Source: Nemertoderma westbladi (taxonomy: Eukaryota; Animalia; Xenacoelomorpha). From it: a stretch of DNA of 53,957 nt. The notes under the pieces were generated by a model. The model was given only the letters and a program-made list of their open reading frames with translations, ran no database searches and had not been told where the DNA came from. The DNA lies in assembly GCA_032718475.1 (NCBI GenBank), contig JAUCBJ010005647.1:1-53957 (forward strand), given 5' to 3'. Both the position numbers and the translations under genes were made by a program. This document shows, piece after piece, positions 1 to 53,957 of this stretch (positions are counted from its first letter, which is position 1; each line of letters begins with the position of its first letter).

Positions 1-840
1 AGTCCCCAGACCTGCTCTGGAATCAAATTGTGTCAATTTTAACATCAAATAATAAAATTCACGGGAATAAATTTAAATTCATATTCGAATGAATTTCATA
101 AATTGTCATTTTGTGCAATTTATAACATTCCCAAAATTCCAGTAATTAATAGATCATGGGAGCGGAGATTCATATTGAGTGTACTAGAGCGCGAGAATCT
201 CCAACATATAGTCAATAGCCGATAAAATTTATAAAATCAGGCATAAAGAGAAGATTGACAATTAAAGAATTACTATTAAATAACATCCCAGATCTGTATA
301 CATGAGAATTGCCCTAATTCTACCGCTACTTTTCCATAATGTCACCATGGCAACACCCACGCTAGAATTAGAAGCAAGTTAAAGGAACAATAAAAAGCTT
401 GCCCCATTGCGTAGCATAAGAGTATACACAGCGCACTATTAGTATCCAAGGATACATAGTAATAACGTGACATTCTGGAAGACACTGACTAACGGACAAA
501 TGGCATGCATGTGTGCAGTAAGTAATGATTGTATGGAATTTGTGCGTTTATAGGTGAATGTTACTACTAAAGTGTGTTTACAGTAGCTAATCGCAATCGT
601 AAAATAGCCCTAACTCTACCGAGGTAACCTCAAGTGGATTCAAGCCTTTGGGACGGACAGTGGTGGGACTTGTGCCGGTTATCGTTGTCGTGCTGTTGCT
701 ACATGTTGGCGTAAACACTGCGACAGCGGTACATCGGCGCTGAGAAACCCACTGTCCGGGGGCAAAAGCCTAGTAGGCAGCGACGCCCGCTTGCCTAAAA
801 TATTAACTCATATTGATATTAATAAACTCAGATAGCAGAT

Positions 841-2968
841 ATGACGGAATTGATAGAAGATGACCTTGGTATTAGAGAGCGATATACTCTACCTTTACAA
901 GCGTTTGTGGATAGCTTGATACGCGGTGAAGCCGATCCGACTATTACGGAGGACGATGGTCGTTATATCGAACCGCCGATGTCCCAGGAACAACTTACGC
1001 GTGAATTGGACTATAGAAAATTCACCGCTCGCTATACGAATCGTAATGGTACGTATATGGACTTCTTAACTACCGGCCATGGGTATCGATGGATCGATGT
1101 TACCCCAGCCCGTTCTCGAGATGTTATTCAACGAAAGAATCATTAAAATCGGCTCAGCTGTTTACGGAGATCTCCAAAACGACTTTCGGAATATGGAGAA
1201 TATCCCCTATCCTTTCGTGGATACTCAGCTGATAGCTCCTTGGGCCGAAGGCCGAGGTTTCTTTCGCACCATGTATGCTAATGTGTCTAGCAATATTACA
1301 AAGGTGCAACGAACTTCCATCGGACATCTTGCCTTTCAGGAATACGGGTGGAATTTCAAGGTCGGAAATCCCATCAACTATCAATAAGTATACGGAGACC
1401 ATTATTCTCGATTATACTTTGACGGACCGTTGACCGCACCTGGCGCCGTGTATAGCTTCATGAGTGTTCCACTCCGTCCCTCCTTAGCTATCTACACGAT
1501 CTTCGAAAACACCGCACTTTCCGGTTGGCTAGCCGATGTGTGCAGTCGTACTATACGCGCCCATCCATTAATCCTTGGGACCAAACTCGCTAAGCTAGAT
1601 GAACATAATAAATTCATCCGCTTTGAATGTTTCCGACGGTTTTTAACCCCGTTTCGCAACGTGGATAGCCAATTCAAAGACCGCGCTTTGACCAAGCTCA
1701 GCTTAAGAGACTCGGCTGCGGAGAAGTTAGATAGCGCTGGATTCGCTATTTTCAGAGACATTTGTGTAATAAACCTGCACTCCTCGGTTATCCAAAGACC
1801 TCGGATCCCCACCGGTTATTCTGTCGTGGAAATTCAGACGGTAGGTCCACTTGAGGAGACGGCCATGCCTACCTCAACTATACAAGGGGAAGACGAACCC
1901 ATATGTTTAGAATCTGAAGAGATTCAGCCCCCCACGTCTCGGAGTAGCGATAGCGACTACATATTGGAATGGTATCAAGGTCCCCAGTGTCTTACTGCGT
2001 ATGATTATCGCCATGCCAATTATGTTTCTAGACAACGTTGTCGGCTGTGCGCATCGAGAGACCATATTACGTCTATGGACACCAACGATCTTTGTTCCTA
2101 TTTCCACGAGCAACCGTCGATGGAAATCTATTGTGCATATTGTCGGCTTAATAATTTGCACATTTTTGCTGTCTGCCCCCAATTTATGACTCAATGCCAT
2201 CATTGTCAATTAAAAGGACACGCCAGCTTTGATTGTCCCTTTAACCATGATTTAGAGAGCGTAGATGAAATGATTGTACTACGTTATATCAGAGCTTGGG
2301 AAGCGAACGCTGATTTACATTGTGATTCACGCCATCGCTATTATCCTGGACGCGCTTACGAAGGAGTTTATGCGTTCCATCCTTATTTGTTTGCCTCCGT
2401 CGAGCAGAAATCGCGCCTATCAAGTTATGAACTATTGAAGCGCGTTGGAGAATGTATTTCAACCAAATATGTACGCAAATTTCTCAGGAGCATTAATCCG
2501 AGTGACATCCATTCTTACAACTTAATAAACTTTATCCGTCAAGACCCTGCCTATGGAGACTTATTCGTCAACTCACACCCTGAGTTACAAGAAGTATATC
2601 GACGGCCTTACGAGTACCGAGCCCGCGAACGCGAGTTGGAAAGAACCATTAAACCAAGGAAGTTTCTAACTACCTATGGTCCACCCACGGCCCTCGTGCA
2701 GACCACTCGTACAGGACCCGTAAGAGCGGCTGTCTTGAAACGAGCTCTCAAAGCCGTTAGACCCCTCTCCCCGGACGTTGATGTCAATCAACCCGGTACT
2801 TCGACCGGCGGATATACCGATCGCAATCCCATACCTTCTGATGCAATCATATTGCACCCTTCACCCAGGAGTTATAGCCCTCCTCGTAAAGTGGCTCGCC
2901 CCAAAGAGAAAAGGACTCTTGCTAGCTTTAAAAAACTGCGTAAACGCCGTCCGCGCAAGAAAGACTAA
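841..2968 (+). pseudogene. Extra 3' ORF of LTR family A: DEDDy/WRN-like 3'-5' exonuclease + 3 CCHC zinc knuckles (disrupted)
   Basis: ORFs 841-1146, 1079-1387 and 1430-2968 join through one frameshift and an in-frame TAA (1385-1387). Exonuclease-like motifs LPQPVLEMLFNERIIKIGSAVYGD, FVDTQ and LAIYTIFE. Knuckles CRLCASRDH, CAYCRLNNLHIFAVC and CHHCQLKGHASFDC. Collinear with 24785-27335 and lies directly upstream of an LTR. Confidence 0.7.
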
Positions 2969-3046
2969 CTGTTTAGAGTATTTTTATATTTTAGAAACTG
3001 TGATTTTGTATATTTTATAGACTTAAATCCCATTTTCTGGGAGCGG

Positions 3047-4256
3047 TGTAAAAGCTTTTGTGGGATAACTGATACGTTTGCCTTTGCTGGCCAGTTCCCC
3101 CCCAGTCGCTAGAATACTCTCAAAGGGATTTATAACTAAAATAGTGCAAGCTACCAGCTTATTGGCTGATGTGCTGTACGGAGATATCTGGGCTCAGTTT
3201 AATCGGCCAACTAGCTTAGAGAGGTTGCCTTAGCCTTGCTGTTCGTGTCGGCCAATAGAATTTGCGTAGGCGTTGATTTCGACCTATCCCAGCGCTACTG
3301 AACTGAATTTCCTATCTCTATGCTCATCCTCTGTGTTGAACGGGGCTTCGTGGAATAAGAGTTTTTGGTATACTCGTATAGTAGTAGTAGTCATATGATT
3401 TTATATGATTCTGTTGTTGTGTTCCCATTTTTCGCCATAACACCGGCTTTTTGGGAAGAACTCTAGTAAAACTGCTTAAATTATCGAAAGTATAAACTGT
3501 TACCGAATCCTACTCACTAACTAATCTAATCAATCTTAACTCACTATTAATCATATTGTTTGTACTGTTATTTACCGTCAGTTATTAATTGTACCTATTT
3601 GTTGATGGAAATATTGCTCTTTGGATAATACGGATAAATCACCCAAATTTCCCAATTTTCTTGATACACTACAGGTTAGAGAGGCGGGCTATATATAACA
3701 ATTGCGATTTATATTAATGTGGTGTGTATTGAATCTAATGTTATTTAGCAGACCCTACATGAGTCAATTGCTGCTCTCTTTATGTGTGATCAAATGTACT
3801 GACGGTCGGCAGAATAGTGTGCATGATTGTTATTGGTAACAAAGCATTTCCTAAAGAATGCGCTTTATACTTTAATCATAAGCAGCAGTATCGTTGCGTT
3901 TAGTATAAGTCCTAGTTCTGTTTAAATAGATAGAGCGCCACGTCCTAAAGGAACTGTTAATATTTCCCGAAAGCCAATAATATCTGTCAGAAATTAATTA
4001 ATAACGATCTATCGAATAATACAGTAAGTTTACACTGCAACCTTGCAACCTTACGCTGCAATAATAAAATTTAAGCAGCCGAATTCAGCCTCCCGGGTGT
4101 AGATCCATCGGGTGAATGATCGCGCATGGGCTGACTTCGGGTAATGTTTTGTGTATTAGCATAAAATATTGTCGTATGCTAAAGTTGTTTTAATTAACTA
4201 AAAGACATATAAATTTTGGCAGGTTGAACTGCTAAAGGTCTTCAAAAGCGCGAACA
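3047..4256 (+). mobile_element. 3' LTR of LTR retrotransposon family A (~1.2 kb, TG...CA)
   Basis: Near-full-length direct repeat of 49359-50563. Starts TGTAAAAG, ends GCGCGAACA, and is preceded by purine-rich GGGAGCGG (3039-3046, PPT-like). Confidence 0.88.
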
Positions 4257-14195: not shown

Positions 14196-14739
14196 TGTTA
14201 GCTTATTCAATCCCGCTAACACCCCATAAAGTTATAAGCCGATAAGCAATATTGGGAGCCACGAGATTGGGTAATTAACCAACTCGTGCCATCCCAATAA
14301 GAATGGGAAGGAGAAGCACACAATGAGGGTCAGGGGCCAAACCCCTAACCCAGAGAGAATAGGTGGAGTGAACGGGAACACTCCAAAGGGCGCCAACAAG
14401 GGTATCAACCAATCAGAGGGGGGAAAGGCATCGATTAGGTAGAGTAACAAGGCCAACCGTGCAATATAGCCACTTGGCAGTAATCATACCAGTTCAGTTA
14501 TCTCAGTGCAATACCGGTGCTAGATTAGGTTACAATAGTTTAGCTAGGGAAGGACCGGGACTTTAGTTACCGTATCCCGCCTTCCGTATACGACAATATA
14601 TCTCATACCTATATCTATATCTATATCTGCATATCATATTATATACGACAAACAGTACAAACTCATTTACTCTTTATACACGGCGGGGACGCGTGAACTA
14701 AAACCGGATAAACCGGGATCCCTCTTGGATCCCGTCACA
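14196..14739 (+). repeat. 5' LTR of family B (544 bp)
   Basis: Identical to the 3' LTR except one substitution seen and a 288-bp insertion in the 3' copy. Confidence 0.95.
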
Positions 14740-14748
14740 GTAACTAAA
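14740..14748 (+). promoter_or_regulatory. Non-tRNA primer-binding-site position, complementary to own LTR (14562-14570)
   Basis: GTAACTAAA is the reverse complement of TTTAGTTAC. Confidence 0.6.
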
Positions 14749-14805
14749 CCAGCTGCCGCCCTAGACAAACTCAGTAACCACCAGCCACCAACCTGCAGAA
14801 GAAAG

Positions 14806-17800
14806 ATGAGTCAGTCGGGAGAAATAACACCGACGCGGACCCCGGACGAAGAACAAACGATCCGCGAGGCCGCGACCAGGCGGTATAGGCCCACGACGCC
14901 GGAGCCATCGATAACGGGCGACCCGGAAGTTCAAGATGAGGGAGACCGTCTGGAGTCAGAAGCCGAGTCGAGAGGAGGGGGAATCGAGTCGGAGGATAGA
15001 GAGAACGGGCTCGAGGGAGAAGGAGACGAGTCGACACGGGGCGAGGGTCGACGCACCGGTGTCGTCGGCCAGCCACAGGCCGAGAGCGACGAACGGCCCA
15101 CCGAGACGATGACAGTGGGGCCGACGGTACGAGGAAGGACCCGGAGAGACGACGGAGGTGTCGATACCGATGTCGCCGGCCAGCCACAGGCCGAGGGCGA
15201 CGGACGGCCCGCCGAAACGGCGACGGTGGGGCCGCCGGTACGACGTCGAACCCGGAGAGACGGATGAGGGGTCGGCGACGAGGACGTCGGGGTTTCTGAG
15301 CGACTTCGACGGGCCTACAACGCGACCCGGAGACTACTAGAGGAGGCCAGAAAGGGGAAAACGATAGACGAGGTAAAACTGAAGTCAGGACTAGGTAAGT
15401 CGGACAGACATTTATACTATCTAATGCATTTCGGGCAGAGAGAATTGGCCGAGGAGAGAGCGAGAAAGGTTGCCGAGGAACTGTATGACTCATGGCGGCA
15501 TGGGGGTATACAACCTAGTGTAGTGTACATAGGGCCATATTTAATCGATGCCCGGGGTATAAAATTAATGGGTTGGAACAGACCTGAAGGGGGCGAATCC
15601 GAGGTTAACCCCGAGGATTCGGCCTCGTCGGTCGGAGGGAGTTCCGGGAGGAGGGGGAAAGCTAGTAGATCGGGAAGGCGGAGGGAGTCCGTCGTAACCG
15701 ATAAGTCTGCTACATCCTCCGCGAAAGAAAGACTGGTGAGAGAGGCAGGTGCCGCGTACCGTCTCGAGCTGATAGAGCAAGGTCAGAGGGAAATGGATAA
15801 ACGGCTAGAGGAGGGGAGAATGCGGCTAGAGAGGGAAGCGGCATTGATTAGAGAAACCGGAGAGAGGGCCGAAAGGGCTTTGAGAGGCCTTAGGGAGTGT
15901 GAGGAAATAGAGGAAAAGGAGTGTAGGGAACGTGAGGCAAGAGAGGAAAGGGAACGCAAAGAGCGCGAGGCGGAACGCAAGGAGCATGAGGCGAGAGAGG
16001 AAAGGGAACGCAAAGAGCGTGAGGCGGAACGCAAGGAGCATGAGGCGAGAAAGGAAAGTGAACGTAAGGAGCGTGAAGCGAGGCGAAGGGAGAGTGCTAG
16101 GAAAGTAGTAGAGTTGGCTGAGCGGGACGCGCGGGAGTGTGAGAGGAGAATGGCAGGAGCCGAGCGAGACCATGAGGAATTAAAGAGACGCCAAAGTGAG
16201 CTTGGGGAACATAGGGTTAGACGCGCGCACGAGCTGCAACTGGTGCGGGCGGGGGCGTCTGAGGGCGGGACTGGCTCGAGTATTCTAGGGGAGCCAGGGG
16301 CCGTGGATACATTTATTAATACCCCACTTGCAGGGACCGCACGACAGACCCAAAACTGGTGTGACCGTACGGGCGGGGGGGGGGGGGGGGTAACAATGAT
16401 AATGATACAGTAGACGTGGTTAATATTAATAGTACCGTATGGGATAATTCTAATCAAACCTTTATTGCAGGGAATACTTTGCCTAGTGGTAGTAATTTAA
16501 ATTTAAATCAGAACAATCTTAATATTAATGTAGAAAATAATCCTAATATTAATGTAGCTACGCAAAATAATCCAAATAATCAAAATAATAATAATTCAAA
16601 TAATTTAATTAATGATCCAAGCCCGAATTTACAAAGTAATTCAGACAGTGTAGTCGTGCAAAGTAATTCAAATGATTTTGTTTCAAACGAACAAATTAAT
16701 TCTGTATCCGATATGGGTGCTATTAACGTAAACACGTCGGGCGTGTACAGCCAGGCAAACGGGGACCTGGCAGGCCACACAGTTGGTGGGCCGGAAGTAG
16801 CTGGGTTAGGTAGACCCAGCGAGGGCCTGGTAGGCCACGCAGTTGGTAGACAGCGAGCAGAGGGCCTGGTAGGCCACGTAGTTGGTAGGCAGGGAGTGGC
16901 TGGGTTGAATAGACCCAGCGAGGGCCTGGTAGGCCACGCAATAGCAGAGGGAGAGGCGGGGGTGAATAGACCCGACCGCGATAGGGTTGATGTGTCGACT
17001 AGAGAGGGATATAGTAGCGTAGTGAGGGATAGCGAAGTTAGATGTGGCGAGTGGGGGGGGGGGGCTACAGGGGCCCCACAACAGCGAGTTCGCGGCGAAA
17101 GGGGGGGGGTGTGCAGAGAGTGTCCCACAGCCGTCAGCGGATAATGCGAGGGCCAAAATAGGTAAACCGCAACAACCGGCGACGGAAAGTAATAGGGGGA
17201 TTGCGAGTATCCCCAGCGGCGTGCGACCGAGCAGAGAGAGACAGGTTGACGTCGTGGGAGGGCGGACGAAGCGTCGAGCCCGATCAGAAGAGGGAAGAAG
17301 AACAGTGGGGTTTAACCGGGAGGTCGACGAGAGATCTCACGAGCGGGAATACTCCACTGAAAGGAGAAGAAGAGAGGATAGTAGTAGAGGTATCGCCGCG
17401 AACGATAGAAGAGCGAGGACGGATAGCGAGCCGTCGGTGGTCGAGATGAGAACAGAGAGTCAGTGGGGTCGGACTCCGGGAGATTGCCGTCGCCCCGGAG
17501 AGATGCGACCCGGCGAGGCGCACTACACGCCGAGAGAGGGGTACGCGATGTACCGGTACGAAGATGAAAACAGTAGAGAGGGGGGTCGAAGAGAAACTTT
17601 CCGACGGAATATACCTACCGATCGAGGATACGGTAGCCGCGGGGGGGACTACTCGAGAAGAATAAACTTCGATCCCGAACAACACATGCAGACTGTAGGA
17701 CATACTGTAGGCCTTACTGCACATACCACAGGCCATACTGAGAGAGGCAATGTAGGCGATAGGATAGCGTGGACAACGGGATTAAACCCGGAAGTCGCGG

Positions 17801-20800
17801 AATACATACCGGCGAGTAGGCCAGAAGCTGATAGGCCTATACCGGTACCAGTACGGCAGTATGACTACAGCATGCAGGGACATAACATATACCCAGGGGA
17901 GGGGGGAATCATTGCGGATTGTTGCATGGGCCCCAACATATTAACATCAACCCCAGTACCAAACATACCAGTGGGGGGGGGGACAGGGTGACATTCCCCC
18001 ATCACAATATCAACAATATACCCCGATAGGAGCAAGAACAACGAGACCCTTGGATGAGAATAGGTCGTGTGATACAGACATATGGAGGGGGCCGCTACCC
18101 CCGATGACATACCCAAGTCAGAGAAAGTCAAGAAATAGGACAGACGGAACGCACCAGACAGGAGAAACTATACAGTACCCATCGAATCCATTGGAAGCAC
18201 AGGCGATGGGGATGGCCACGTTGATCGATGCGTTGAAAACGAGGATCGAGTTACCACCCGTGGAACCATTCAAATTCGATGGGAGCAGGCCGGAAGAATA
18301 TCTACAGTTTCGGCGCATGTATAGTAACGAAATACTAACAAAAAACTTGACGCAGGCGGAGTGCCTAAAGTATCTACAAGTGTACACGGGAGGCCCAGCA
18401 TACGACATAGTGAGGCAATATCAAGGAATAGAGGGCGGCTTCACGACAGCATGGCGGGCACTGGATAGGGAATACGGGCACCCGGCCAAGATCATCAGAC
18501 AGACGTTGAGAGGCATAACATCGGGTGGCCTACAGGATAATCCCGTTAGCATTAAGACATTTGCTAACAAAGTTGAAAAGGCGCTAATCGTGCTGAAGAC
18601 GCTAGACGCGCCATACGAGCTCAACGCGTCCAACAACATCACCACGATAGCGCAGGCACTACCGAGCTGGCTGCGCAACAAGTGGAGGAAAATCGCCTTC
18701 TCCACTCGAGATAAGAAGGGTGCGGAACCGGGTTTAGAAGAAATGTCAAACTTCTTAAACTACGAGGCTGAACTAATAACTGACCCAGTCTATAGCGAAG
18801 ATAGCCTGGGAAAGGGACCTAAGACAGACTACCATAGACCGAAACCAGAGCACAACACATCAAACGCATTACCGAGACTCAGGCAATCATTGCCATATGC
18901 AGCGATGCAGGGGACTGCAAGTCCACAGCTAGCCGAGGATAAGACAACACCATGGAACGGACAGGGAAACAATAACAACACGAATAAACATGACCCCAGT
19001 ACGTCCAGTAGGCTAAATCCAAACAATAAGAATAGTAGGGACTTTGGTACAAACGCAACTGCGATACGCAATGTGCTGTATAAAGAGGGCTACGACCCAA
19101 AGAGCAAATGCCAGCTACACGCAAATGCGCTTCATCAAACCATGAACTGCAGGTACTGGCAGGCGCTACCTAGGCAAGATCAGATAGATTATGCGTTCAG
19201 CAATAAAATCTGCTCGCGATGTGTAATGAGTGGACATAGAGCAAGGGAGTGCAAGGAGAAGCCAATAAAATTTGGTCAAAGGAGAGGCCAAACGATGGCG
19301 ACGAGCACAGTAGGGGCGAAGAAGAGGGGAACGGTGTTACTTGGAGTAGTACCAGTGCGAGTGATCGGGGAAGGCAATCGATCAGTAACAACACTAATGC
19401 TGGTTGATAGTGGAGCTGCCTTCACATTAGTCGAGGAATGGGTGGCCGAAGAGATAGGATTGAGAACGAGGCCAAGCAGGATGGCGGTAACAACCATCTC
19501 TAGCAAAGATGAGATCCTAGAGATGAGAACAGGACGGTGCGCAATTGCAGCAGTGGCACCAGGATGCGACTATGGGGCAACCATCGACCCCATCCAAGTG
19601 ATAGAGTCAATTAATATTAATGCCAGGCGACCAACCAACATCGAGGTCGAGCAGTATAAATTCCTGGACGACATTGACTTCTCAATCCCAGACGTGGACG
19701 TTAGGAAGGTGTCCATCATAGTAGGCATGGACTGCCCAACGGCCCACGAAAGAATGCAAACGGTCTTCGGCGAAGACAAGCAGAGTGACCCGGTGGCCAT
19801 ATTAACACCATTCGGGTGGACGCTGAGTGGTCCAATTAAGAGCAAGATACCATTTAGGATGTCAGAGACATCAGGATGCATGTTCGCGGGAACAATGCAG
19901 GAAATGGGTGACGAGGGAGCAGAGGAGCAGCTTAAAAGACTGCTCAGACAGGATTTCGAGGGACTGAAAGAAACCGGGGTCGGGACCTCGGTGGAAGACA
20001 AGCAGGCTTTACAAAGCGTGGAGGAATCGATGACATGCGATGAGGGGCGGTATACTATAGGAATGGTATGGAAACTACCGAAGATACCGCTGCCCGACAA
20101 TAGGGGGATGGTACTCACGAGACTCCGCAAGCTGAAACAAACACTAAAACGGAGCCCCGAGAAGAATGAGTACATCTACAGGACGATTAAGAAGTACGTC
20201 GAGAAAGGATGGGCCGTGGAGTTACCGGTCGACGAGCCGAACACGGACAGGACATATTACCTGCCACTACACGTGGCTTTAGATCCAAAGAAAGGTAAAC
20301 TACGGATGGTAGTCGACGCATCGGCAAAGACCGACGGAAAATGCTTAAACGACTACCTGTTGGAAGGCCCAAACATATACAATTCGGGCATAGAGGTGTT
20401 ACTTAGATTTAGAAACGGGAAACACGCCTTCACGTGTGACATAGAAGGCATGTTCAACCAAGTCCGTGTAACAGAGGAAGATAGCGACAGTCAACGCTTC
20501 TTATGGTATAACGGCGAGGAAGAACCGTCGATAATACCGGCATATAAGATGGTAGTACAAAACATGGGGGCCAAGTCGTCTTCATTTACGACGACTATGG
20601 CAGTGAGAGACACAGTGAAAGGGAAGGAAGATAGATAGAGCAGTAGGGCCGTCGATATGATTCGACGCGGCTTCTACGTAGACGACGGAATGGAGTCTGG
20701 AAATACGGTTAAGGAGATACTGGACACAGGGCGCGAGGTTCGCGACATCCTAAAAGGATCCGGCTTTAACCTGACCAAATTCCAATCCAGTTCGGAAGAA

Positions 20801-23314
20801 TTTATTAAGGCGATAGAGGACAGGAGACCAGAATCGACCATGGACAATCCCACAACAGCCAAAGGGCAGGACATGGCGATTAAGAGAACAGAATCTCAAC
20901 AGAAGGCATTGGGAATCGTGTGGAACAGGGAGACAGACGAACTGAAGTATCAGCTGAACCAGGAGGGCGCAGACATCCACACGAAGAGGGGCTATGTATC
21001 GTATATAGCAAGGATATACGATCCCCTAGGCCTAGCATCCCCATTATTAGTCACGGGGAAACAGATACTCAAGAGAGTATACAAACTGAAGGATGAGTGG
21101 GACGTAGAGGTACCAGAGGAAATCAAGAAACAGTGGAGCAAGTGGACAGGAGACTTGGAGAAGATGGGAACATACAACTTGCCACGGGTGTATTTCCCGG
21201 ATGGGAACATGACGAATGTGGACCTACACATGTTCTCCGACGCGTCGTTGGAAGCGTACGGAGCGGCACTCTACTTAGTACAACGAGAGGGGGCTCATAA
21301 GCCAAGACTAGCCTTTAGTAAAGCAAAGTCAACGCCACCGGATTCAGCATCAGTTCCTAAGTTAGAACTGACAGCCGCGAGACTAGGGGTAAGAGCCACA
21401 GCCTACCTAGTGGATACTATTCCCAGCATAGTGGAGACACACTACTGGACGGACTCCATGGTAGTGCTTGGTTGGCTACACAACGAAAGAACGAGATACC
21501 CGATATTCGTCGCGAATAGAGTGGACGAAATAAGGGTGAGCACAGAACTGGAAAGGTGGCACTACTGCCCAACGGACGAGAACCCAGCAGACTTGTTGTC
21601 GAGGGGCGTGGTACGCCACACTTTCTTGAAGAAGGAAGTATTGTGGCAACATGGGCCACAATTTCTGAGCGATAAGGAAGCCTGGCCGCCGATGAGGAAG
21701 GTGGACCCGGGCTCGGAAGTAGTATCAGAAGGAGAAGAGGGAGATTCAGAGGGAGAAGAGATATACTCCCAGATGGTGAGGGAGATTAGGGACGTGCAAC
21801 CAGGACGGGAACTGTGCGATAACCCGACGGATAAACTCCTCAGCTACAGTTCTAGTTGGTATAAGACCATGAAACTAGTGGCGTACTGGAGAGCCTTCGG
21901 GAATTTCCTTGCGGGAGTTGGCAAGGACAAGAAGATCAGGACAACCATAGATCTGGAAGGAGCGGCCAAGGCAGTGATCCGCTATGAACAACGGAAGAAC
22001 TACGGCGACGAGGTGGAACGCGTCGGTAACTAACAGCACCTCCGACGGGACAGCGAGCTGATTACGCTGTCGCCACAACTCAATGACGACGGGATTCTAG
22101 TAATGAATTCTAGGGTGGGATACAACAACAGCATAGTCGTACCACCGAAACCTATCATCATTCCTACAGGATCGCCAATAGTCCACCAGATTATATGGGA
22201 CTCCCACAAATCGATATTGCATGGGGGCACCAACCGAACCCTCACAGAGATAAGGAGGACCTATTGGGTCAAACAATTAAGGAAGAAGGTTAAAGCGGTA
22301 GTGGGGCAGTGCCAGACCTGCCGACGAGCGAAGAAGGAGCGAGCCGTACAGGAGATGGCGCCACTACCGGCGAGTAGGGTAAGACAGCACGACCCGCCAT
22401 TTACGCATTGCGGTGTGGACATGTTCGGGCCGATAAAGATCAAAGTGATGCGACACACGGAGAAACGCTACGGCATTATCTTCGTATGCAATAACACACG
22501 GGCGGTAGGGATAGAACTCGCCCAAGATGCAACCGCATCAGCATTCATTAATGCCCTAGAAAGATTTAGAGACCGCAAAGGTGGGACGATCGCAGTGATA
22601 TACAGCGACAACGGCACCAACTTTGTGGGCGCAGAGAGTGAGATGGCAGAGGCCTTGGACATCTTGGAGGGAGAAGAAGTCAGGGCAGCCATGAGACGAC
22701 GACAAGTAAAGTGGGAGAGAAGGACGCCGTATGCACCACATACACTAGGATGCGTCGAGAGACTGGTGGGCAGTTCAAAGCGTCTAATGACGAAGCTAAT
22801 GAACACCCACATGGTCACTGAGGACGTCTTACGGACAGTACTTGCGAAGTGCGAGGGGATCATTAATAGCAGACTGCTATATCCGGAGAATGATGACCCT
22901 GAGTCATTAGACGTGCTGACACCTAGCCATTTCCTGATGGAAAGGCCAGCGACCATCGATATGCGGCGTGTAGACCCAGATGACATACACTCCCGCCAAA
23001 GTTGGAAAGTCGCTAAAGCAATAAGCGCAGAGTATTGGAGGAGGTGGGTCGAGGAATACCTACCCACACTCCATAAACGAAGCAAGTGGAGGAAGTCAAA
23101 CAGGGAGTTAAGAGAGGGATATCTCGTAATCGTTACGGATGATACTATCATCAACAACCAATGGCGGTTGGCGAGAGTAGTAGGCACCTACTCCGACGAG
23201 GACGGAAGAGTCCGATCGGTAGAAGTACGGATAGGTGGAAAGATAGGTGCGAAGGACAGAAAAACCTACAGGAGAGCTGTAGGCAAATTCTGTCTGTTAG
23301 AAGGGGCACCTTAG
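14806..23314 (+). pseudogene. gag-pol: BEL/Pao gag-pol polyprotein with frameshifts and nonsense codons
   Basis: Gag knuckle CSRCVMSGHRAREC; protease LVDSGA; RT YYLPLH, RMVVDAS, DIEGMFNQV, YVDD; RNase H FSDAS, LEL, WTDS, NPAD; integrase H-H-CC, GVDMFGP, SDNGTNF, ERLVG, WRRWVEEYL. In-frame stops at 20636-20638 and 22031-22033, and several gag frameshifts at poly-G runs. Confidence 0.95.
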
Positions 23315-23435
23315 TGGAGTTAGAGAAAAGTTTAGTCGTCCAAGTTTTGGACTGAGGGGGGTGGGATTGAGGGCGAGACGTCCTTCCCACAAACAAAAAA
23401 AAAAAAAAAATAATAATAAAATAAAATAATAGTAC

Positions 23436-24310
23436 ATGGTAGGTACGCAGTTAGTAGGCAGAAGTTAGTTAAGAGGTACGTAGTACCTAGTTAGTTAGTT
23501 AGTTAGAAGGTACGTAGTACCGATAGTTAGTTAGAGAGTTAGAGGGTACGTAAGTACCGCTAGTTAGTTAGAGTTAGAAGGTACGTAGTACCTAGTTAGT
23601 TAGTTAGTTAGAAGGTACGTAGTACCGATAGTTAGTTAGAGAGTTAGAGGGTACGTAAGTACCGCTAGTTAGTTAGAGAGTTAGAGGGTACGTAAGTACC
23701 GCTAGTTAGTTAGAGAGTTAGAGGGTACGTAAGTACCGCTAGTTAGTTAGAGAGTTAGAGGGTACGTAAGTACCGTTAGTTAGTTAGTTAGAGAGTTAGA
23801 GGGTACGTAAGTACCGCTAGTTAGTTAGAGTTAGGAGGTACGTAGTACCTAGTTAGTTAGTTAGTTAGAAGGTACGTAGTACCGATAGTTAGTTAGAGAG
23901 TTAGAGGGTACGTAGTACCGATAGTTAGTTAGTTAGTTAGAAGGTACGTAGTACCTAGTTAGTTAGAGAGTTAGAGGGTACGTAAGTACCGCTAGTTAGT
24001 TAGAGAGTTAGAGGGTACGTAGTACCGCTAGTTAGTTAGAGTTAGAAGGTACGTAGTACCGATAGTTAGTCAGAGAGTTAGAGGGTACGTAGTACCGATA
24101 GTTAGTTAGAGAGTTAGAGGGTACGTAGTACCGATAGTTAGTTAGAGAGTTAGAGGGTACGTAAGTACCACTAGTTAGTTAGAGAGTTAGAGGGTACGTA
24201 AGTACCGCTAGTTAGTTAGAGAGTTAGAGGGTATGTAGTACCGTTAGTTAGAGAGAAAGTAAGAGTCAGAGGGTACGTAGTACCGTTAGTTAGAAGAGAG
24301 AGAGTAAGAG
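23436..24310 (+). repeat. ~30-bp tandem array between pol and the extra ORF
   Basis: Unit approximately GTTAGTTAGAGAGTTAGAGGGTACGT(A)AGTACCGCTA, roughly 25 copies. Confidence 0.92.
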
Positions 24311-24784
24311 GTAAAAGGGGATATAGATATAGATATTAGTTAGCAGTTAGTAGAGAGAGGGGGGCATATGAGTACAGCTGGGTAAGTCGTGTGGCCACAC
24401 GACGCATACTGCTGTACTGCATAGGCCAGAATACAGAGTAGGCCAGAATGTGGATTAGAGAATAGAATAATCCATAGGCAGTAGTAAGTAGTAGGACAGT
24501 AGAATCAAATTAAATAAATAAATAAATAGAATAGGGCTGAAAGTTACAAAATAGTGGCAACACAAGGGAAGTTATTCTAGAACATAATAAAAGTAACGGA
24601 CAGAAATTGTAAATTACGCTCATTTACTAGCTTCAAAATTAATTAGTGATAATTTAGGTTAAAAGGCGCAGTTAAGTAGGAAGTAGGCCATTATCGAACC
24701 GTACAGAACATCCTAGATACATCACTCATCTGTATTGCGCCTTGGTAAGGCACCACCTTGCAGGTGAGCGAGTGAACGTTCGGA

Positions 24785-27335
24785 ATGGCGAGTAAGTTGA
24801 TCAGAAATAGAAAAGCGGAGTCAGGAGGAAAGGAGATACTGGTGGATTTCACCGAGAGGCATCCGGAAGAGAAGACGAGAGGATACTACGAGAGGTTGGA
24901 AAGGGGTCACGCGGCGCGAGCACTGCAAGATCACTTCAGGGAGATGCACGAACAGCGGCTGGTCGGGACCTACGGGACGCCGTCGCTGGACAACGCGATC
25001 TTCCAACACTTCCACTACGTGGTGAGAGGGGACGAGGCGAAGTTCGGGATTCCGAAGTACCCGAGGGAATCACCGAGGAAGGGCTGGAAGAGATTCATAG
25101 AGTCCGTCAACAGAGGAGGATATATGATCCTAGACGACGAGGGAACCGTGGAAGACGAGGCGGGTTCGAGACGAGGAACGGCGGGGTCGGCCAGGACCAT
25201 ACTCCTACATTTGGCCACGCCAAATGGGGACATCTTCTTATTCGACCTAGGGACGTATGGGAAGAAGGACAGGCCGAAATTAAACCGGTTACCGAAAGTG
25301 GTACAAGTCTTAGTAAGAGAGAAGTCGACGACGAAAGTGGGATCGGCGATTCGCGAGGACGCGGAGAGGATCATCAGTCCGGACGCCACCAACCTCCTGG
25401 ATATGCAGAAAGTCTTTATGGCTATGACGGCACCGGATGGGTTGGGGGTAGTCGAAAACACAGGCCAAAGCGGGGCAGTGGCGATGGGCCAATCATTGGG
25501 GCTCGTATGCCACAAACCGATGGACTGGGGGAAGTTTAGGGAAGAATACGGAGCAGAACTAGCGAACTCGCTAAAGTGGGGAGCGAGACCGGGAAGGCAG
25601 GAGGTATATCAGTTCCGAAGGGGAGCGATAAAGGTATATCAGAAGCGATATATCCTGCAGGAGGACTGGATGATGATAAGTTTGCTTAACTTATTCATGA
25701 CCGTGGTTATCGAGAGGGAACCAGGGGCATTTCTGTTATCGGGATCACCCCTAAGCTACAGGAGAGCCTTTAAGACGGCCTTTGACGATCTGGTAGACCA
25801 CCCGGGGCTGAAGGGCGAGTCGGTGTACTACAACAGCCGACATCTGGTAGACGGGGAGACAGATACACCGTATCAGAGATGGGAGCAGCTAGAGACGGAT
25901 AGACGAGAAGCAAAGCGACTGGAAGAAGTCGCTAGACGGGAGAGGATAGAAGCAGAGGAGAGGGAAGAGGAGGCAGGGACACAGAGTTACGGCTTCAAGG
26001 AACAGGCAGGCCTAGACGAACTTCATTGGACTTCATCAGGGAGTTCGGAGGAGTCTCTAGGGCGAGAATTGGGATGGACGGTGGGATCGCCGAAACAGTC
26101 GACGTCGGGGTTGCAAACAATGCCCATACCAGCGGGCGCCGAGGGCGACCAACCGCCAAGGAAGTTAAGGGAGCTAGAAGGATGGAGAGCTACGGGCGAG
26201 AGCCAAGGCGGGAAGGGACATAGTGGATCCATCGGGATACCGGGGTTGGAGACACTACCAGAAGAGGAGGACGACGACGATGAGTTCGGAGAGATGCCGC
26301 CCATCGAGAGGATAGGCCACTCGGACATGGACTGGGTTGGCGGAAGGGTGGTGACTGCCAGTGGGGCAAGGGCCTTCTGGAACAGATCCGGCAAGCGGAC
26401 CTGGGTGCACGAGGAGTGTGGCGATGGATTTCGCGGGGAGCACCATCAGGTTGGGCGAGCAACCGGGGACGACACCACGGATAGTATTCGGGGAGACGAT
26501 GCCCGAGAGGGGCGGAGAGATCGACGTAGATAGAGAGACCAACGTAGAGAAGTTCGCCTACCAGCTACTCCACAGACCGCGGAGATCGCTTGGGACGAAA
26601 GACGAGGTGGGACGGGAGACATTGGTACTCGGCTGCGACTACTGTGGGAGACAGACCCATCGGGAAAGCAGCTGCCTATACCGGTTCCAAAAAGGAACCT
26701 TTTGTCTCTACTGCAGAGAACCAAGCCACAGGATGGGGGCGTGTCCACGGTTGCATAACCGATGTCCAAAGTGCCACTTTCGGGGACACTACGGACGCGA
26801 GTGCGACTGGATGAACGACGAGGAGAAGTTCACAAGATTCGAGGAGTGGGCCGACGTCGGGGCCATGACGCGCCAGCGCATGAAGGCCCAGGAGTTCAAG
26901 TGGGGTTTCTTCCTTATCAATCAGGAGACTCACATGGAAATCATAAAGCGGAGGCTGCCGTTTACCTACCAAGAGGTAGCAACGGCGGCGTCGTACGCTG
27001 GAGTGATGAACACGCAAAGATATTTGGACAGGTGGACGCCAGAGAACCGAAGGGAGTTTAGGGATTTCTTGGCGGAGCACGTACCAAAGGCAATGAAAAT
27101 GATCCTATGGGACGCCACCAGAGGGAGACAACCGGGCCACTCTGAGGGGCCACCGGCGAAGCGATATCGGGCACTAATAACACCAGCGCCCAAGGAGCCA
27201 ACGACCGGGATCAGCAAGGAAGTAGCGGCGAAGGTCCGAAAGCAGAAAGCGGATGATGCCAGAGGAACGGTGATAACCAAGAAACGGCCCAGGGAACAGG
27301 ACGCCAGGGGGAACTATCCCCAGAGGAACAGATAG
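24785..27335 (+). CDS. Extra 3' ORF of family B: DEDDy-like 3'-5' exonuclease + triple CCHC knuckle (two overlapping frames, probably one frameshifted gene)
   Basis: ExoI MILDDEG, LLHLATPNGDIFLFDL, LPKVVQVLV..KVGSAIRED (ExoII), LLDMQ and QKRYILQE (ExoIII-like). Then CDYCGRQTHRESSC, CLYCREPSHRMGAC and CPKCHFRGHYGREC. Confidence 0.78.
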
Positions 27336-28050
27336 GTTCCCAGAGTCGAGGGATAGAGACTGAGACTTGGACGTGGTGCGCCTGGAAGGCGCCGCGTGGG
27401 ACGTACGAACTATTAAGTACAAGTTTAATTAATGCAAATAATCATATAAGTGCAATTTGTATGTACGTATGTAGTAATTAGTAATCTACGAATATATACG
27501 CTGGGAGTAAGTACTATAGTCATACAACCTTTCTCAATTAGCTACTGGGACTGGGGGACAACTGACTATGGCACTATGGACGAGACACCAGACGATTTCA
27601 CACTTCTTGAGTGCGACGGCACAAGAGGGGGGGGGGGGGGATTCGTCAGAAGGGATGAGGTAGTCAGAGTAGGGTTGAGGGACAGAGTAGTTAGTGCGAA
27701 GTGTGGAGAGAGTGCGGACGCAATTCTAGTGTGGGGGGGGGGAGAATAAGAGGCTGAGTGAGGGACGAGGAGGTCCGAGTGTATGAGAGAGTTAGGATGA
27801 GAGTGAAGAAGAGATAGGGCGGAAGTGTTGGGGAAACAAAAGTTGTGTGAGAGGTGAGCGTGATCGGCCCGACATGAGACGCCAGGCACACAGGGTAGCG
27901 TTATCATACCCATAGGGAGCGGCCTGGAAAGCCGGCTCCGAGAGAAAAGAATTCCACCCCACACCCGATACTAGATCGGGATCCAGCGGGATTGTAGCGC
28001 ACTTTTTGGTTGATGCTATCTTCTTACCGGGAAGATAGCATGGGGGGGAG

Positions 28051-28882
28051 TGTTAGCTTATTCAATCCCGCTAACACCCCATAAAGTTATAAGCCGATAA
28101 GCAATATTGGGAGCCACGAGATTGGGTAATAAACCAACTCGTGCCATCCCAATAAGAATGGGAAGGAGAAGCACACAATGAGGGTCAGGGGCCAAACCCC
28201 TAACCCAGAGAGAATAGGTGGAGTGAACGGGAACACTCCAAAGGGCGCCAACAAGGGTATCAACCAATCAGAGGGGGGAAAGGCATCGATTAGGTAGAGT
28301 AACAAGGCCAACCGTGCAATATAGCCACTTGGCAGTAATCATACCAGTTCAGTTATCTCAGTGCAATACCGGTGCTAGATTAGGTTACAATAGTTTAGCT
28401 AGGGAAGGACCGGGACTTTAGTTACCGTATCCCGCCTTCCGTATACGACAATATATCTCATACCTATATCTATATCTATATCTGCATATCATATAGGTTT
28501 AAATGAGTTAGAATGGGCTATATTCCGGTTTAAATAGTTAAAAAATTCAAAATTTACATGGCAATATAATTATGATCATTAAACATATTAATATTAACAT
28601 ATTAAACTATATTAAACTTTATTATTTTTAAACCAGACGTTCTGAAGATTTTGAAATGCATTAACGTTTTTAATATCTGGTTTACTTATTTATTTGTTTT
28701 TAATTACTTTTAATAATTTAATGTTTAATGATCATAATTATATTGCCATGTAAATTTTGAATTTTTTAACTGCATATCATATTATATACGACAAACAGTA
28801 CAAACTCATTTACTCTTTATACACGGCGGGGACGCGTGAACTAAAACCGGATAAACCGGGATCCCTCTTGGATCCCGTCACA
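28051..28882 (+). repeat. 3' LTR of family B, with secondary insertion 28495-28769
   Basis: Matches the 5' LTR. The insertion is flanked by a 13-bp duplication CTGCATATCATAT. Confidence 0.95.
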
Positions 28883-30209: not shown

Positions 30210-30362
30210 TTCTGACCTACTTAAAGATTGCCCTGCCGATTCTGACCCACTTAAAGATTGCCCTGCCGATTCTGACCCAGTAAAAGATTGCCCTGCCGAT
30301 TCTGACCCAGTAAAAGATTGCCCTGCCGATTCTGACCTACTTAAAGATTGCCCCGTCGATTC
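30210..30362 (+). repeat. 30-bp coding repeat (DSDPxKDCPA x5) in the YR C-terminus
   Basis: Direct inspection. Confidence 0.88.
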
Positions 30363-41320: not shown

Positions 41321-41455
41321 TTGATTCTGATTTGTAAATTGTAAATTAACGTTTAAACAAACCTAATTATGGGAATATTTTTATATAATTTATTTTCATT
41401 TTTATTATATTTATTCGTATTGCAGTGCGATTGTATATATAATATAAATTCTAAC

Positions 41456-45180: not shown

Positions 45181-45324
45181 CCCCCCCCCCCACCCACCCC
45201 GGGGCAATACATTGTAAAATAGACAACAATTAACATTTACGATAAAACAAATTACAATTAAAACAACAATGTTGGGACGTCACGGGGAGTTTTCAGTTAC
45301 ATTGATCATTCAGTTTCAGCCGCA

Positions 45325-49358: not shown

Positions 49359-50563
49359 TGTAAAAGCTTTTGTGGGATAACTGATACGTTTGCCTTTGCT
49401 GGCCAGTTCCCCCCCCGGTCGCTAGAATACTCTCAAAGGGATTTATAACTAAAATAGTGCAAGCTACCAGCTTATTGGCTGATGTGCTGTGTGGAGATAT
49501 CTGGGCTCAGTTTAATCGGCCAACCAGTGTAGGGAGGTTGCCTAAGCCTTGCTGTCCGTGTCGGCCAATAGAATTTGCGTAGGCGTTGATTTCGACCTAT
49601 CCCAGCGCTACTGAACTGAATTTCCTATCTCACTGCTCATCCTCTGTGTTGGACGGGAGCTTCGGGGAATAAGAGTTTTTGGTATACTCGTATAGTAGTA
49701 GTAGTCATATGATTTTATATGATTCTGTTGTTGTGTTCCCATTTTCGCCATAACACCGGCTTTTTGGGAAGAACTCTAGTAAAACTGCTTAAATTATCGA
49801 AAGTATAAACTGTTACCTAACTAACCTAACGCAATCGACTTATCTGATCTAATTAACTCACTATTAATCATATTGTTTGTACTGTTATTTACCATCAGTT
49901 ATTAATTGTACCTATTTGTTAATGGAAATATTGCTCTTTGGATAATACGGATAAATCACCCAAATTTCCCAATTTTCTTGATACACTACAGGTTAGAGAG
50001 ACAGGCTATACATAACAATTGCGATTTATATTAATGTGGTGTGTATTGAATCTAATGTTATTTAGCAGACCCTACATGAGTCAATTGCTGCTCTCTTTAT
50101 GTGTGATCAAATATACTGACGGTCGGCAGAATAGTGTGTATGATTGTGATTGGTAACAAAGTATTTCCTAAAGAATACGCTTTATACTTTAATCATAAGC
50201 GGTATCGTTGCGTTTTAGTATAAGTCTTAGTTCTGTTTAAATAGATAGAGCGCCACGTCCTAAAGGAACTGTTAATATTTCCCGAAAGCCAATAATATCT
50301 GTCAGAAATTAATTATTAGCGATCTGTCGAATAATACAGTAAGTTTACGCTGCAACCTTACACTGCAATAATAAAATTTAAGCATCCGAATTCAGCCTCC
50401 CGGGTGTAGATCCATCGGGTGAATGATCGCGCATGGGCTGACTTCGGCTAATGTTTTGTGTATTAGCATAAATTGTTTTCGTATGCTAAAGGTGTTTTAA
50501 TTAACTAAAAGACATATAAATTTTGGCAGGTTAAACTGCTAAAGGTCTTCAAAAGCGCGAACA
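49359..50563 (+). mobile_element. 5' LTR of a second family-A element (element runs off the window end)
   Basis: Direct repeat of 3047-4256, followed by a ~2.2-kb leader and a long ORF. Confidence 0.88.
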
Positions 50564-50576
50564 GTAACAGTTTATA
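50564..50576 (+). promoter_or_regulatory. Non-tRNA primer-binding-site position, complementary to own LTR (49804-49816)
   Basis: GTAACAGTTTATA is the reverse complement of TATAAACTGTTAC. Confidence 0.7.
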
Positions 50577-52744
50577 ATCTTATTGCAGTAGGCAATAAGG
50601 TTGCAAAATACCGTAGTGACTGGTAAAACTGAACCGGTGCTTCTGTAGGTCAGTAGGCCTAACTGTCATCACCGGTACCGGTACTGCTGTACAAGTACAT
50701 TTAGTATTATTCGATTTTGATTATTGTATACCGGTAGGCTGTTTAAGAGATTAGGGACTGTACACCCCTTGTTTCTTTTGGAGCTTACTTATTTCTGTCG
50801 GTTTTATTTCCTAGTAAGTTAATATTGAGCTGAAGACGTGTAAGTCTGCTCAGATTGTTCAGATAATTGTAGGCTGAACTGCTGTCTGACTGTGTTGAGT
50901 TTGGAGAGATTACGGCGTGTGTAGAGTTTGTCTGATAAAGTGCCGTTAGTAAGTTGGGGCAGCCATATGCGGTAAGGTCAATCCCCTCTTAAAGAATAAG
51001 TCGTACTACCGTGTTAGAACGCATACTAACTAACTGTTTCAGAATCTGCATATACTGTAGTTTATTTAGGCTTGATCGTAGTCTGCCAGTGTTTTAGCCT
51101 GTGTTTGTTTGTGTGGTCTGTTCAGGTACCGTAATAGTTATTACTCAGATATTTGTAGGCTAGATTGTTGTCTAGCTATTCTTAGGCCTGAAGGGATTGC
51201 TGCGTGTGTAGAGTTGGTCTGATAAAGTGCCGTTAGTAAGTTGGGGCAGCCATATGCGGTAAGGTCAATCCCCTCTTAAAGAATAAGTCGTACTACCGTG
51301 CTAGAACGCATACTAACTAACAGTTTCAGAATCTGCACATACTGTAGTTTGTTTAGGCTTGATAGTAGTCTGCCAGCGTTTAGTTTGTATTTTGTTTGAG
51401 TATTCTGTACGGGTAGCGTAATATTTATTATTCAGAGTTTATGCGATTATTCGCAACATTCATGTCCCCAAGTTTATTCCTACAGTAATTGTGCTTGTTA
51501 TACATACCGTTATAGTTAAATTAACCCCGGTACTACACGGGCTGCTCGGCGTAGGACAAGACTGGTGACTTTGTGCTCTAGTCACTCCAGCAGATGCCGT
51601 GGTTCTTTTAACTGTTCAAGTATATTTAACTACTGATTATTTGTTATACCGGTACTTGTACCTAATTTAGGGTTTAGTGTACAGTGCTTTCCGAAGTAAT
51701 TAGTGTAGGCAGTATATTTGTGTTGTAAAGTGGTTGATAGGCACATTCGTTAGCTCTATTAGCTTCTGGGTAGGAACAATCCGTGATACATAACGTAGTA
51801 CCTATAGCGATACAGTTATAAGTCGTCAGGCGGTGGTATTTTTCCTATCTGGACAGTACAATATATTTACTACTACTTATTATTTCAAATACCGTAGTAC
51901 CCTGTCCGTTGTAATAACCAGAATTCTAACCCTTTGTTAGGCTGGTTTGTAGACTTCCTGTAAAATTACCCTAAAAATTTCGTACGTAATATTTTGTTGT
52001 GTTTAATTAGAGAATTAATCTCCTCAGTATCGTAAGTAATTTGTAGTATTAAGTAACTTAGGTAAATTAGAATTATCAGTTTTAGTGTCAAATAAATAGC
52101 ACTTCACTGAGAGCGCGCAGCTTCTGTGTAGTGACCCCCCAGAAATAATAACATTTATTTCAAATATTGACAAAAAACCCATTTAAACGGGTATATATCT
52201 ATTATCAATCAACTCAAACGATTTATACATAGTAGGCCTGCCAGACAACAACTAGGTCTCAATATCAGTTGGACTACTGCTTAAATAACGGTAAAAAAAT
52301 AAGTTAAAGTAACTAAGTAACCCTAAAATATTCAGGAATTCAATTATTCTAAAAATAATTGACATACCGGTACTTACCATAGGCTTATTATATTTATTTC
52401 TATAAATTTGAGCTGAAATCATACCGGTACTCTGTAATTAATTTTAGTTCATAATTATACTTATATACTATAAGTGTAAGCTGTATACCGGTATTCCCTA
52501 TAGGCCTATTATATATTTATATATATCTGTGCTAAAATTATATACCGGTACTCTGTGACAAATCTAGTCTGTAATAATACTTATATATATTATAAGCATA
52601 CCGGTATTCTAATATATTGTATATATATCACGTTACACTGAGTAACAGTACCGGTAATAAATCGCTAGGCTTGCGGTCATACTGAATTACCAGACTTGCT
52701 TTAACTGAAACTATAGTAGTAGATATTCAACTGTATAACTAAAC

Positions 52745-53957
52745 ATGTCTGACACTCAGCAAAACCTGTCAGACAGTCTGATCGATACAACTATCTGTGA
52801 TTCAGATAGGAGTGTGGAGCGAATAAGAAAGGAGTTCGGCTCACCTCCTACTGTAAAAAAGGTCATCCCTCCAGTAGTATCAGACCCTAGGCTAGTCCAC
52901 CATAGGTCCATCATAGGCACTCGGGCACAGGTAAAACGGGACCAAATGGCAGTTGTCCTATCGCAGCAACATCTTGGTCAAGAACCTACTTCCCAGCGAC
53001 CCGATAGCTCCAGCAGTTCGGATACTGTAGAGCTGACTCCCGAACATGGAGTGCAGATGGCTGATACAGTCTACTCGGACCCCCTTCTTACTCTTCCTGC
53101 TGCAGTGCTAACTACTATATTCATTGCGGTGGAGGAACATCAAGCCGACTGGGCGAAGAATAAGCGAGCGACCCAAGATAATTACGCAGGATACGCCAGG
53201 GAAGAATTGATATCTATTGTTGAATCACAATGGAACTTTCCCGGACTCGGACTTCCGTTGGATCTGTCCGAGGCTACTTGGGAAGATATACACAGGATGG
53301 GAGTGGCTAAAGATACAATGGATCCAGCTGTTTGGAAGAGGTCGGCAGCAGGATATGTGCAGGGATTCTTCGGATCTTTGGATCGATTGGAAGAACAACT
53401 GTTTCGACAACCTCACGGACCTCAAGAGCAGGAAGAGCTGCTATATCAAATACGCGAAAGAACCCTACGCATACGACTAATCCTCTCAGCCTTTGAGGAA
53501 ACTTCCAAAAGAAGACAGGACACGTCGCTGCAGGTTGCTGTCAAAACTTGGCTACATCGGGTAGATCTCAAAGTACAGGAAACGGCCCGGTGGAAATCCC
53601 AGCTGGCTGAGAGATCAACTTATGAAGAACCAACTGATGTCACCCTTTCTCAAGCGGAAAGCGAAGAGGCCGCCGAGAAACCGCGAACTAGAGACGCTAT
53701 CGACATTTATTTGTCCGACTATCAGCGATTCCTAGGAGACGAAGAGTTGAGGAGACGGCTGTCTGGACTTTCCCCTAATAGTGAAGGAACCAAGCTTGTA
53801 TTGGACTCAATCGATGCCGAAATGTTAGCTGCAAACCAAGCTGAATGTGATGAAAAACTCCGTCTCACTAGAGTCCGAGAAGAACAAATAAAGAAAAGAA
53901 GGATAGAGGAACAAAAGGCGGCGGCTATGGCAGATGCAGAAGCAGAAAGAAAAGCAG
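52745..53957 (+). CDS. gag-like ORF1 of family A, open to the window end (absent from the supplied ORF track)
   Basis: Manual translation MSDTQQNLSDSLIDTTICD...AAAMADAEAERKA has no stop over ~400 codons and is homologous to the A' ORFs. The gag identity comes from position only. Confidence 0.75.
   Translation, partial: MSDTQQNLSDSLIDTTICDSDRSVERIRKEFGSPPTVKKVIPPVVSDPRLVHHRSIIGTRAQVKRDQMAVVLSQQHLGQEPTSQRPDSSSSSDTVELTPEHGVQMADTVYSDPLLTLPAAVLTTIFIAVEEHQADWAKNKRATQDNYAGYAREELISIVESQWNFPGLGLPLDLSEATWEDIHRMGVAKDTMDPAVWKRSAAGYVQGFFGSLDRLEEQLFRQPHGPQEQEELLYQIRERTLRIRLILSAFEETSKRRQDTSLQVAVKTWLHRVDLKVQETARWKSQLAERSTYEEPTDVTLSQAESEEAAEKPRTRDAIDIYLSDYQRFLGDEELRRRLSGLSPNSEGTKLVLDSIDAEMLAANQAECDEKLRLTRVREEQIKKRRIEEQKAAAMADAEAERKA

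Follow-up and report, generated by a model that had tools for sequence, protein, structure and literature searches.

The stretch between positions 841 and 2968 of the window, by which we mean the whole 53,957 nucleotides of DNA analysed, carries a disrupted copy of the 3′ accessory gene (ORF3) of a multi-copy LTR family, here called family A. A second ORF3 is carried by family B, a BEL/Pao retrotransposon of the same window. Judging from their sequences, the two are probably distantly homologous accessory genes, each coding for a DEDDy-like exonuclease joined to three zinc knuckles; the latter are likely to grip RNA, which would allow the enzyme to trim its 3′ ends.

Two retrotransposon families and their accessory genes

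Family A is represented by the 3′ end of one element (1–4256) and the 5′ end of a different copy, its pol lying outside the window (Table 1). That it is an LTR family, as the original prediction held, is borne out by the TG...CA repeat behind ORF3 and its second copy, which align over 1197 bases with 1151 matches and 46 mismatches. The 5′ ORF has no Pfam match. On the minus strand, 31016–35568 is a diverged relative of the family A 5′ end (68–77% identity), with a coiled-coil-like ORF, again without Pfam match, and with TTAAT, not GTAAC, behind its LTR.

All the family A motifs quoted in the prediction are found in the sequence, spread over three open stretches: AFVDSLIRG and TEDDG in frame 1 (841–1146), LPQPVLEM and KIGSAVYGD in frame 2 (1070–1384), and YSF, IYTIFE and the three knuckles in a single frame. 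The latter is open throughout 1388–2968, in agreement with the statement that ExoIII and the knuckles are read together. Hydropathy indicates no transmembrane segment, an env-like trait, in the five ORF3 pieces of A and B, the highest 19-residue Kyte–Doolittle mean being 0.36–1.33.

Table 1. Positions of the family A and family B features in the window.
Feature	Coordinates	Strand	Content
Family A ORF3, N-terminal piece	841..1080	+	Frame 1, open until stop at 1144-1146; contains TEDDG, probably not ExoI
Family A ORF3, break 1	1072..1080	+	Frame change; at least 150 further bases here in other copies
Family A ORF3, ExoII piece	1073..1384 (frame 2 open 1070-1384)	+	KIGSAVYGD; Asp codon at 1169; weak DEDDy profile match
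Family A ORF3, break 2	1385..1387	+	Premature stop, private to the window copy
Family A ORF3, remainder	1388..2968	+	ExoIII-like YTIFE (Tyr 1493, Glu 1505), acidic linker, three knuckles (2039-2236), basic tail
Family A PPT-like tract	3039..3046	+	Short, purine-rich, just before the LTR (from sequence)
Family A 3′ LTR	3047..4256	+	TG...CA, 1210 bp
Family B BEL/Pao element	14196..28882	+	LTR 14196-14739, gag-pol to 23314, 3′ LTR 28051-28882
Family B ORF3	24785..27335	+	ExoI D-x-E (25133), ExoII D (25358), ExoIII Y-x3-E (25649), three CCHC knuckles (26634-26804)
Second family A element, 5′ end	49359..53957	+	LTR 49359-50563, long leader, ORF from 52739 off the window end

Family B is a BEL/Pao LTR retrotransposon. 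Between its TG...CA LTRs the Pfam matches follow the order DUF1759, aspartyl protease, Peptidase_A17, integrase and DUF5641, that is, a gag (DUF1759), a protease, the Pao RT-RH region, an integrase and DUF5641; AAACG stands at both flanks as a 5-bp target duplication, and the LTR pair shows 543 matches and one mismatch. The BEL/Pao group is described as a metazoan subclass in the accessible text of PMC3118150, and the host is accordingly taken for an animal. ORF3 of this element lies 1471 bases behind pol, with 716 bases between its end and the LTR. It contains one frame break, near 26.42 kb and private to the window copy; the window sequence of the exonuclease domain (24947–25870) is without breaks.

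Several further observations concern the family B elements. The 3′ LTR of B is split by a MITE-like insertion (28495–28766), 272 bp of AT-rich sequence whose terminal inverted arms are long, although the LTR pair is otherwise nearly identical. Despite the near-identical LTRs, the reading frame of the gag-pol region (14740–23314) is interrupted by two stops and shifts several times at long runs of G (16375, 17053, 17973); some of these breaks may be assembly errors. A relative at 38074–39468, of which the 3′ end is present, has about 200 bases in place of the 2.7-kb ORF3 region and is a derivative without the accessory gene. A 13-bp hairpin directly precedes the polypurine tract both in B (28013–28041) and in this relative (~38938–38967). 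Another relative, internally deleted, lies on the minus strand at 7142–10569, where a gag fragment stands between direct repeats of 444 bp (94.6%).

Contigs of four sequencing runs were aligned to the window, the family A stretch being present in six of the 11 runs listed. The numbers aligned per run were 16773, 4909, 83 and 393 for A and 6228, 3560, 8 and 55 for B; with 16773 and 6228 contigs in run X1, both families are high in copy. None of the depth covering position 1385 agrees with the window in any of the four runs (49, 35, 1 and 3 contigs), and the stop in A is therefore private to the window copy. The place near 26.42 kb in B is covered in three of the runs (6, 3 and 1 contigs) and not in the remaining one; almost all of this depth lacks the frame break of the window. 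A single fused exonuclease–knuckle protein in both families, as originally proposed, is thus supported by other copies free of the A stop and of the B frameshift. Among the best supported rows of variants between copies, which are not a random sample (40 of 626 in A; 40 of 349 in B, reduced to 39 by dropping one non-coding row), the third codon position is the one affected in 25 of 40 for A (p = 1.5e-4) and in 26 of 39 for B (p = 2e-5). This excess, which is not a dN/dS estimate, suggests purifying selection on ORF3 in A and B.

Exonuclease identity and the relationship between the two genes

A DEDDy profile, made from 64 bacterial PF01612-type domains and no window sequence, was compared with the 242 six-frame segments of at least 60 residues. 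Family A 1070–1384 ranked first (E = 0.0097; 1 of 1000 shuffles scored as high) and family B 24776–26530 second (E = 0.057; 0 of 1000), and the two matches, weak yet consistent, overlap around ExoII, at model positions 89–139. With hhalign, none of 60 shuffles equalled the match of the A ExoII piece to this profile, and likewise none that of B ORF3; the A ExoIII piece alone gave no match (53 of 60 shuffles as high). Results were weaker with a profile restricted to 120 EXD2-like proteins (A rank 1, E = 0.079; B rank 3, E = 0.72), and Pfam yielded no exonuclease in any A or B exonuclease piece at E values up to 1.

The motifs can be placed on these alignments. The ExoI D-x-E of B (ILDDE) lies at a strand end aligned with GFDTE, the first Asp being invariant in the alignment, and the ExoII Asp of both KIGSAVYGD (A) and KVGSAIRED (B) aligns on the profile Asp. 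Compared with 24 EXD2-like proteins, B displays ExoI D-x-E, ExoII D and ExoIII Q-x2-Y-x3-E, and keeps K130, G132, D138, Q232, Y235 and W241, which are invariant among them. The canonical ExoIII Y-x3-D is absent; B has Y-x3-E (YILQE), as does A (YTIFE) by its alignment to B, and the domain is therefore classed as DEDDy-like, not canonical. A register that read YSFMS in A as a dead Y-x3-S was dropped, since YTIFE takes that place when A is aligned to B.

Within the PF01612 group (EXD2, WRN-exo, Nibbler/Mut-7, EXD1, Egalitarian, RNase D), the likeness comprises the order and spacing of ExoI, beta2-beta3, ExoII and ExoIII, as well as K[IV]G...D at ExoII and aromatic-x11-Y at ExoIII. The A and B domains differ from this group in being about 20% identical to it, below Pfam detection, in 30–40 extra residues between ExoII and ExoIII, and in the Y-x3-E, the fused knuckles and the mobile-element carrier. 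In the Atlas, B comes nearest to the cluster 'Werner syndrome-like exonuclease' (0.82), which is a lead only. A single-sequence fold model of B reached a pLDDT of 33.6 and had no meaningful structure match, and a model guided by 24 EXD2-like sequences reached 51.6; exonuclease domains fill the top 28 of 50 rows for the guided model (best Z 6.7, rmsd 5.5, 143 aligned), with EXD2, Egalitarian, Nibbler, Exd1 and RNase D near, a result which, being circular and biased by its alignment, speaks for compatibility with a DnaQ-like fold only.

Database searches retrieved no relatives. Word-indexed searches of a protein collection, restricted to near lengths, gave no match among 2679 candidates for B residues 70–360 and none among 1846 for A residues 1–400. 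The B exonuclease domain had no phmmer match among 1.84 billion representatives; PDB sequences gave one unrelated row (E = 2.4), a phage search found nothing, and none of 62 pattern matches of the A query in metagenome contigs was confirmed.

Comparison of the two ORF3 products by BLASTP shows a match at the knuckles only (E = 6e-07; 20 of 73 identical). The knuckle blocks reach a local score of 87, attained by none of 2000 shuffles, and with Cys and His held fixed a score of 80 versus 44 ± 8.5 (p = 0.0008); knuckles 2 and 3 are separated in both by a spacer of the same length, six residues with Pro first. For the ExoII–ExoIII region, four settings of end-gap-free alignment yielded p values of 0.0050, 0.0017, 0.0047 and 0.071; the printed setting recovers the register VYSF/VYQF and YTIFE/YILQE, with 33 identities in 145 columns. 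Local alignment was not significant for the exonuclease pieces (p = 0.39, 0.08 and 0.60) or for the read-through A exonuclease against B (p = 0.26 and 0.11). The 24-residue ExoIII window alone gave p = 0.10. Behind the knuckles the match is poor (p = 0.75, or 0.02 in a different register), and blastn found no match between the two genes. The collinear matches claimed between the families are supported for the ExoII–ExoIII region by the end-gap-free p values of three of the four settings and for the knuckles by the shuffles; the ExoI pairing TEDDG/LDDEG is not supported.

One might suppose that only the knuckles are shared and that the exonuclease likeness of A is due to chance, given the blank Pfam, PDB and protein-collection searches and local alignment p values of 0.08–0.60. 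The first rank of the A ExoII piece among 242 segments, matched by 1 of 1000 shuffles against an independent profile, and the collinear end-gap-free alignment with B make this highly improbable. Homology of the two genes is further upheld by shared unusual traits, the comparators being bacterial DEDDy domains and not animal Mut-7/EXD/WRN. K[IV]GSA occurs in A and B and in none of 164 bacterial entries (some counted twice), the ExoII–ExoIII spacing is 108 in A and 97 in B versus 65–68 in 48 of 50 bacterial domains, and Y-x3-E at ExoIII is found in A and B versus none of 64. We hold it to be probable that the two genes are homologous and that their domain is of the DEDDy type. The gene may indeed be called highly diverged: the 33 identities in 145 columns and the absence of a blastn match imply that the shared ancestor is old. 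Together with the third-position excess in both families, these values agree with the earlier view of an old, conserved gene.

This does not by itself make ORF3 the marker of a single clade. Between 3 and 17 of the 64 bacterial domains score against A or B as high as A against B, so that the closeness of the pair rests on motifs and architecture. The two families might each have captured DEDDy-like and knuckle modules of their own, or an old exchange might have passed the gene between them, as would fit A–B scores that do not exceed the best cellular ones, linkers of unlike length (178 residues in A, about 324 in B, in proteins of about 760 or more and an inferred 850 or so residues, respectively) and the lack of any match to family B in the 5′ ORF, LTR and non-coding parts of family A. 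The accessible text of PMC5408684 reports sharing between unrelated retroelements in rotifers and proposes old exchange between them. Independent capture, as distinct from old exchange, is at odds with the three shared exonuclease traits and the same Pro-first spacer, and GTAAC behind both 5′ LTRs likewise speaks against such a history; on balance we regard capture or exchange as unlikely.

The ExoI motif of A requires separate comment. The acidic residues of ExoI had been thought to differ between the families (EDD versus DDE), which is not supported, the window copy lacking at least 150 bases where ExoI is expected. Loose contig ends lie behind 1080 in all four runs (48, 19, 2 and 6 contigs), contig records starting at 1072 are preceded by 84, 122 and 150 unaligned letters, and among the 32 records listed of 22175 none bridges 1072–1080. 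This is most simply explained if the window copy of A has lost at least 150 bases at 1072–1080. With the missing stretch included, TEDDG is at least 114 codons (43 + 50 + 21) from the ExoII Lys, whereas ExoI and this Lys are 49–51 codons apart in most of the bacterial domains and 67 apart in B; without the missing stretch the distance is 64, which accounts for the original ExoI match. The TEDDG piece is equalled against the DEDDy profile by 31 of 60 and 656 of 1000 shuffles, and against the N-terminal 122 residues of B its p value is 0.22–0.58, reaching 0.01 only versus a hand-picked motif. Most likely, the ExoI of A lies in the stretch missing from the window copy, and the EDD/DDE difference is most likely an artefact of the deletion. 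Alternatively, but less likely, the exonuclease domain of A contains a large insertion.

Possible function

CCHC knuckles bind single-stranded nucleic acid. The ORF3 protein, presumably made from a separate 3′ message, would bind the RNA of its own element through the knuckles and the basic tail, and the exonuclease would then trim a 3′ end, that of the primer or of the genomic RNA, within the element ribonucleoprotein. Trimming of 3′ ends of RNA or single-stranded DNA is what DEDDy enzymes do, according to the accessible text of PMC5408684. Granted homology and domain identity, we incline, with some reserve, towards a catalytically active enzyme; that trimming of the element's own RNA would be its main job is a more tentative proposal.

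Egalitarian is a member of the exonuclease group without normal nuclease activity, and EXD1 is described in the same way in the accessible text of PMC5408684. By comparison with these, ORF3 could be a pseudo-nuclease adaptor, a non-cutting RNA-binding module that packages or transports element RNA. The replacement of the ExoIII Asp by Glu in A and B and the presence of Egalitarian and Exd1 among the structures nearest to the guided B model would fit such a role. B nevertheless retains an acid at all four metal positions, plus the Tyr, and the ExoIII acid has been kept in A and B across a very deep divergence; we therefore consider the adaptor quite unlikely.

The target might also be host RNA. 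The protein could over-trim or sequester host piRNAs or siRNAs, or compete with Nibbler/Mut-7 and EXD1, and thereby weaken silencing. Exd1 and Nibbler are near the guided B model, itself biased by its alignment (Z 6.2–6.7, rmsd 5.2–5.6, 141–145 aligned), both families are high in copy, and the B relative without ORF3 fits a trans-acting factor, although action in trans fits other models equally. The accessible text of PMC5408684 raises a silencing role for the DEDDy ORF and reports no clear link between this ORF and copy number. Such counter-defence appears to us somewhat unlikely, and own-RNA trimming remains our preferred, if tentative, reading.

A hint as to which 3′ end may be trimmed by ORF3 comes from the bases behind the 5′ LTRs, which in both A and B are GTAAC, not TGG, and from complements of these bases within the LTRs. 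In A, a perfect 13-base complement of 50564–50576 is present at 3491–3503 and at 49804–49816 (duplex energy reached by 0 and 1 of 300 shuffles; a 12-base exact match by 1 and 2 of 2000). The complement in B is of nine bases (14562–14570 versus 14740–14748; 9 of 2000 by exact match, 40 of 300 by energy). Self-priming has a precedent in Tf1. It is tempting to speculate that A and B form an undescribed BEL/Pao lineage that is self-primed without a tRNA 3′ end, with ORF3 trimming the self-primer. However, the complement site in A overlaps TATAAA, which may be a promoter, in which case the site would fall outside the transcript, and we consider the proposal very unlikely.

Known counterparts

DEDDy-like ORF3s are known from the bdelloid rotifer LTR retrotransposons Juno and Vesta, and also from Athena/Terminons (Rodriguez et al. 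2017; PMC5408684, accessible text); PMC6431247, PMC5718144 and PMC6338049, likewise by their accessible text, are further publications on rotifer DEDDy ORFs. Like the Juno/Vesta ORF3 as described there (PMC5408684), the A and B genes are separate ORFs downstream of pol, in the position of env and without membrane segment, and encode a DEDDy-type 3′-5′ exonuclease with altered acidic motif and putative function. By the same published description (PMC5408684), they differ in that the carrier of B is a BEL/Pao element, that the motif of B reads D-E-D-E instead of DEED and that the exonuclease is followed by a long acidic linker and three fused CCHC-type knuckles, a Cys-His-Cys motif being noted there only in two Vesta ORFs. 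Dada transposases, according to the accessible text of PMC3706591, also contain a transposon-borne DEDDy domain, with a proposed role in 3′ end processing; unlike A and B, Dada is a DNA transposon, its domain is inserted in the transposase and the four residues are canonical.

With the present data, enzyme-type ORF3s would be known from a BEL/Pao element as well as from those of rotifers. The gene has stayed in frame and apparently under selection in both families, and outside the knuckles the two lie beyond linkage by BLAST; retention in two such distant families suggests that it does useful work, either in the cycle of the retrotransposon or in countering silencing by the host. The nematode BEL-type Cer elements are said to carry an extra 3′ RNase D-like exonuclease with a Cys motif (reportedly in work by Malik et al. 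in 2000), and reportedly also an env-like gene, which is not seen in A or B. If so, the combination of a 3′ exonuclease and a Cys motif in a BEL/Pao element has already been published, and the present case is less new. In the searchable literature, outside which lie Repbase and most subscription papers, no report of a BEL/Pao exonuclease was found. The word exonuclease is absent from the accessible main text of PMC3118150, PMC9094657 and PMC3315495, and the sequences in the supplement of PMC3118150 might hold such ORFs. The unbroken exonuclease domain of B can be assayed, which would address whether such ORFs are active, a question posed in the accessible text of PMC5408684.

The window as a whole is repeat-rich eukaryotic DNA, in which no tRNA gene was found. 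Right behind the B 3′ LTR, an ORF with one stop (28900–30681) has by eye tyrosine-recombinase-like motifs (R...HK...RH...GH...Y) and no Pfam recombinase match; it is possibly a Crypton-like element. A LINE with endonuclease and RT (PF03372, PF00078) occupies 39962–43824, and a satellite array of about 50 near-identical 41-bp units extends from about 45180 to 47500.
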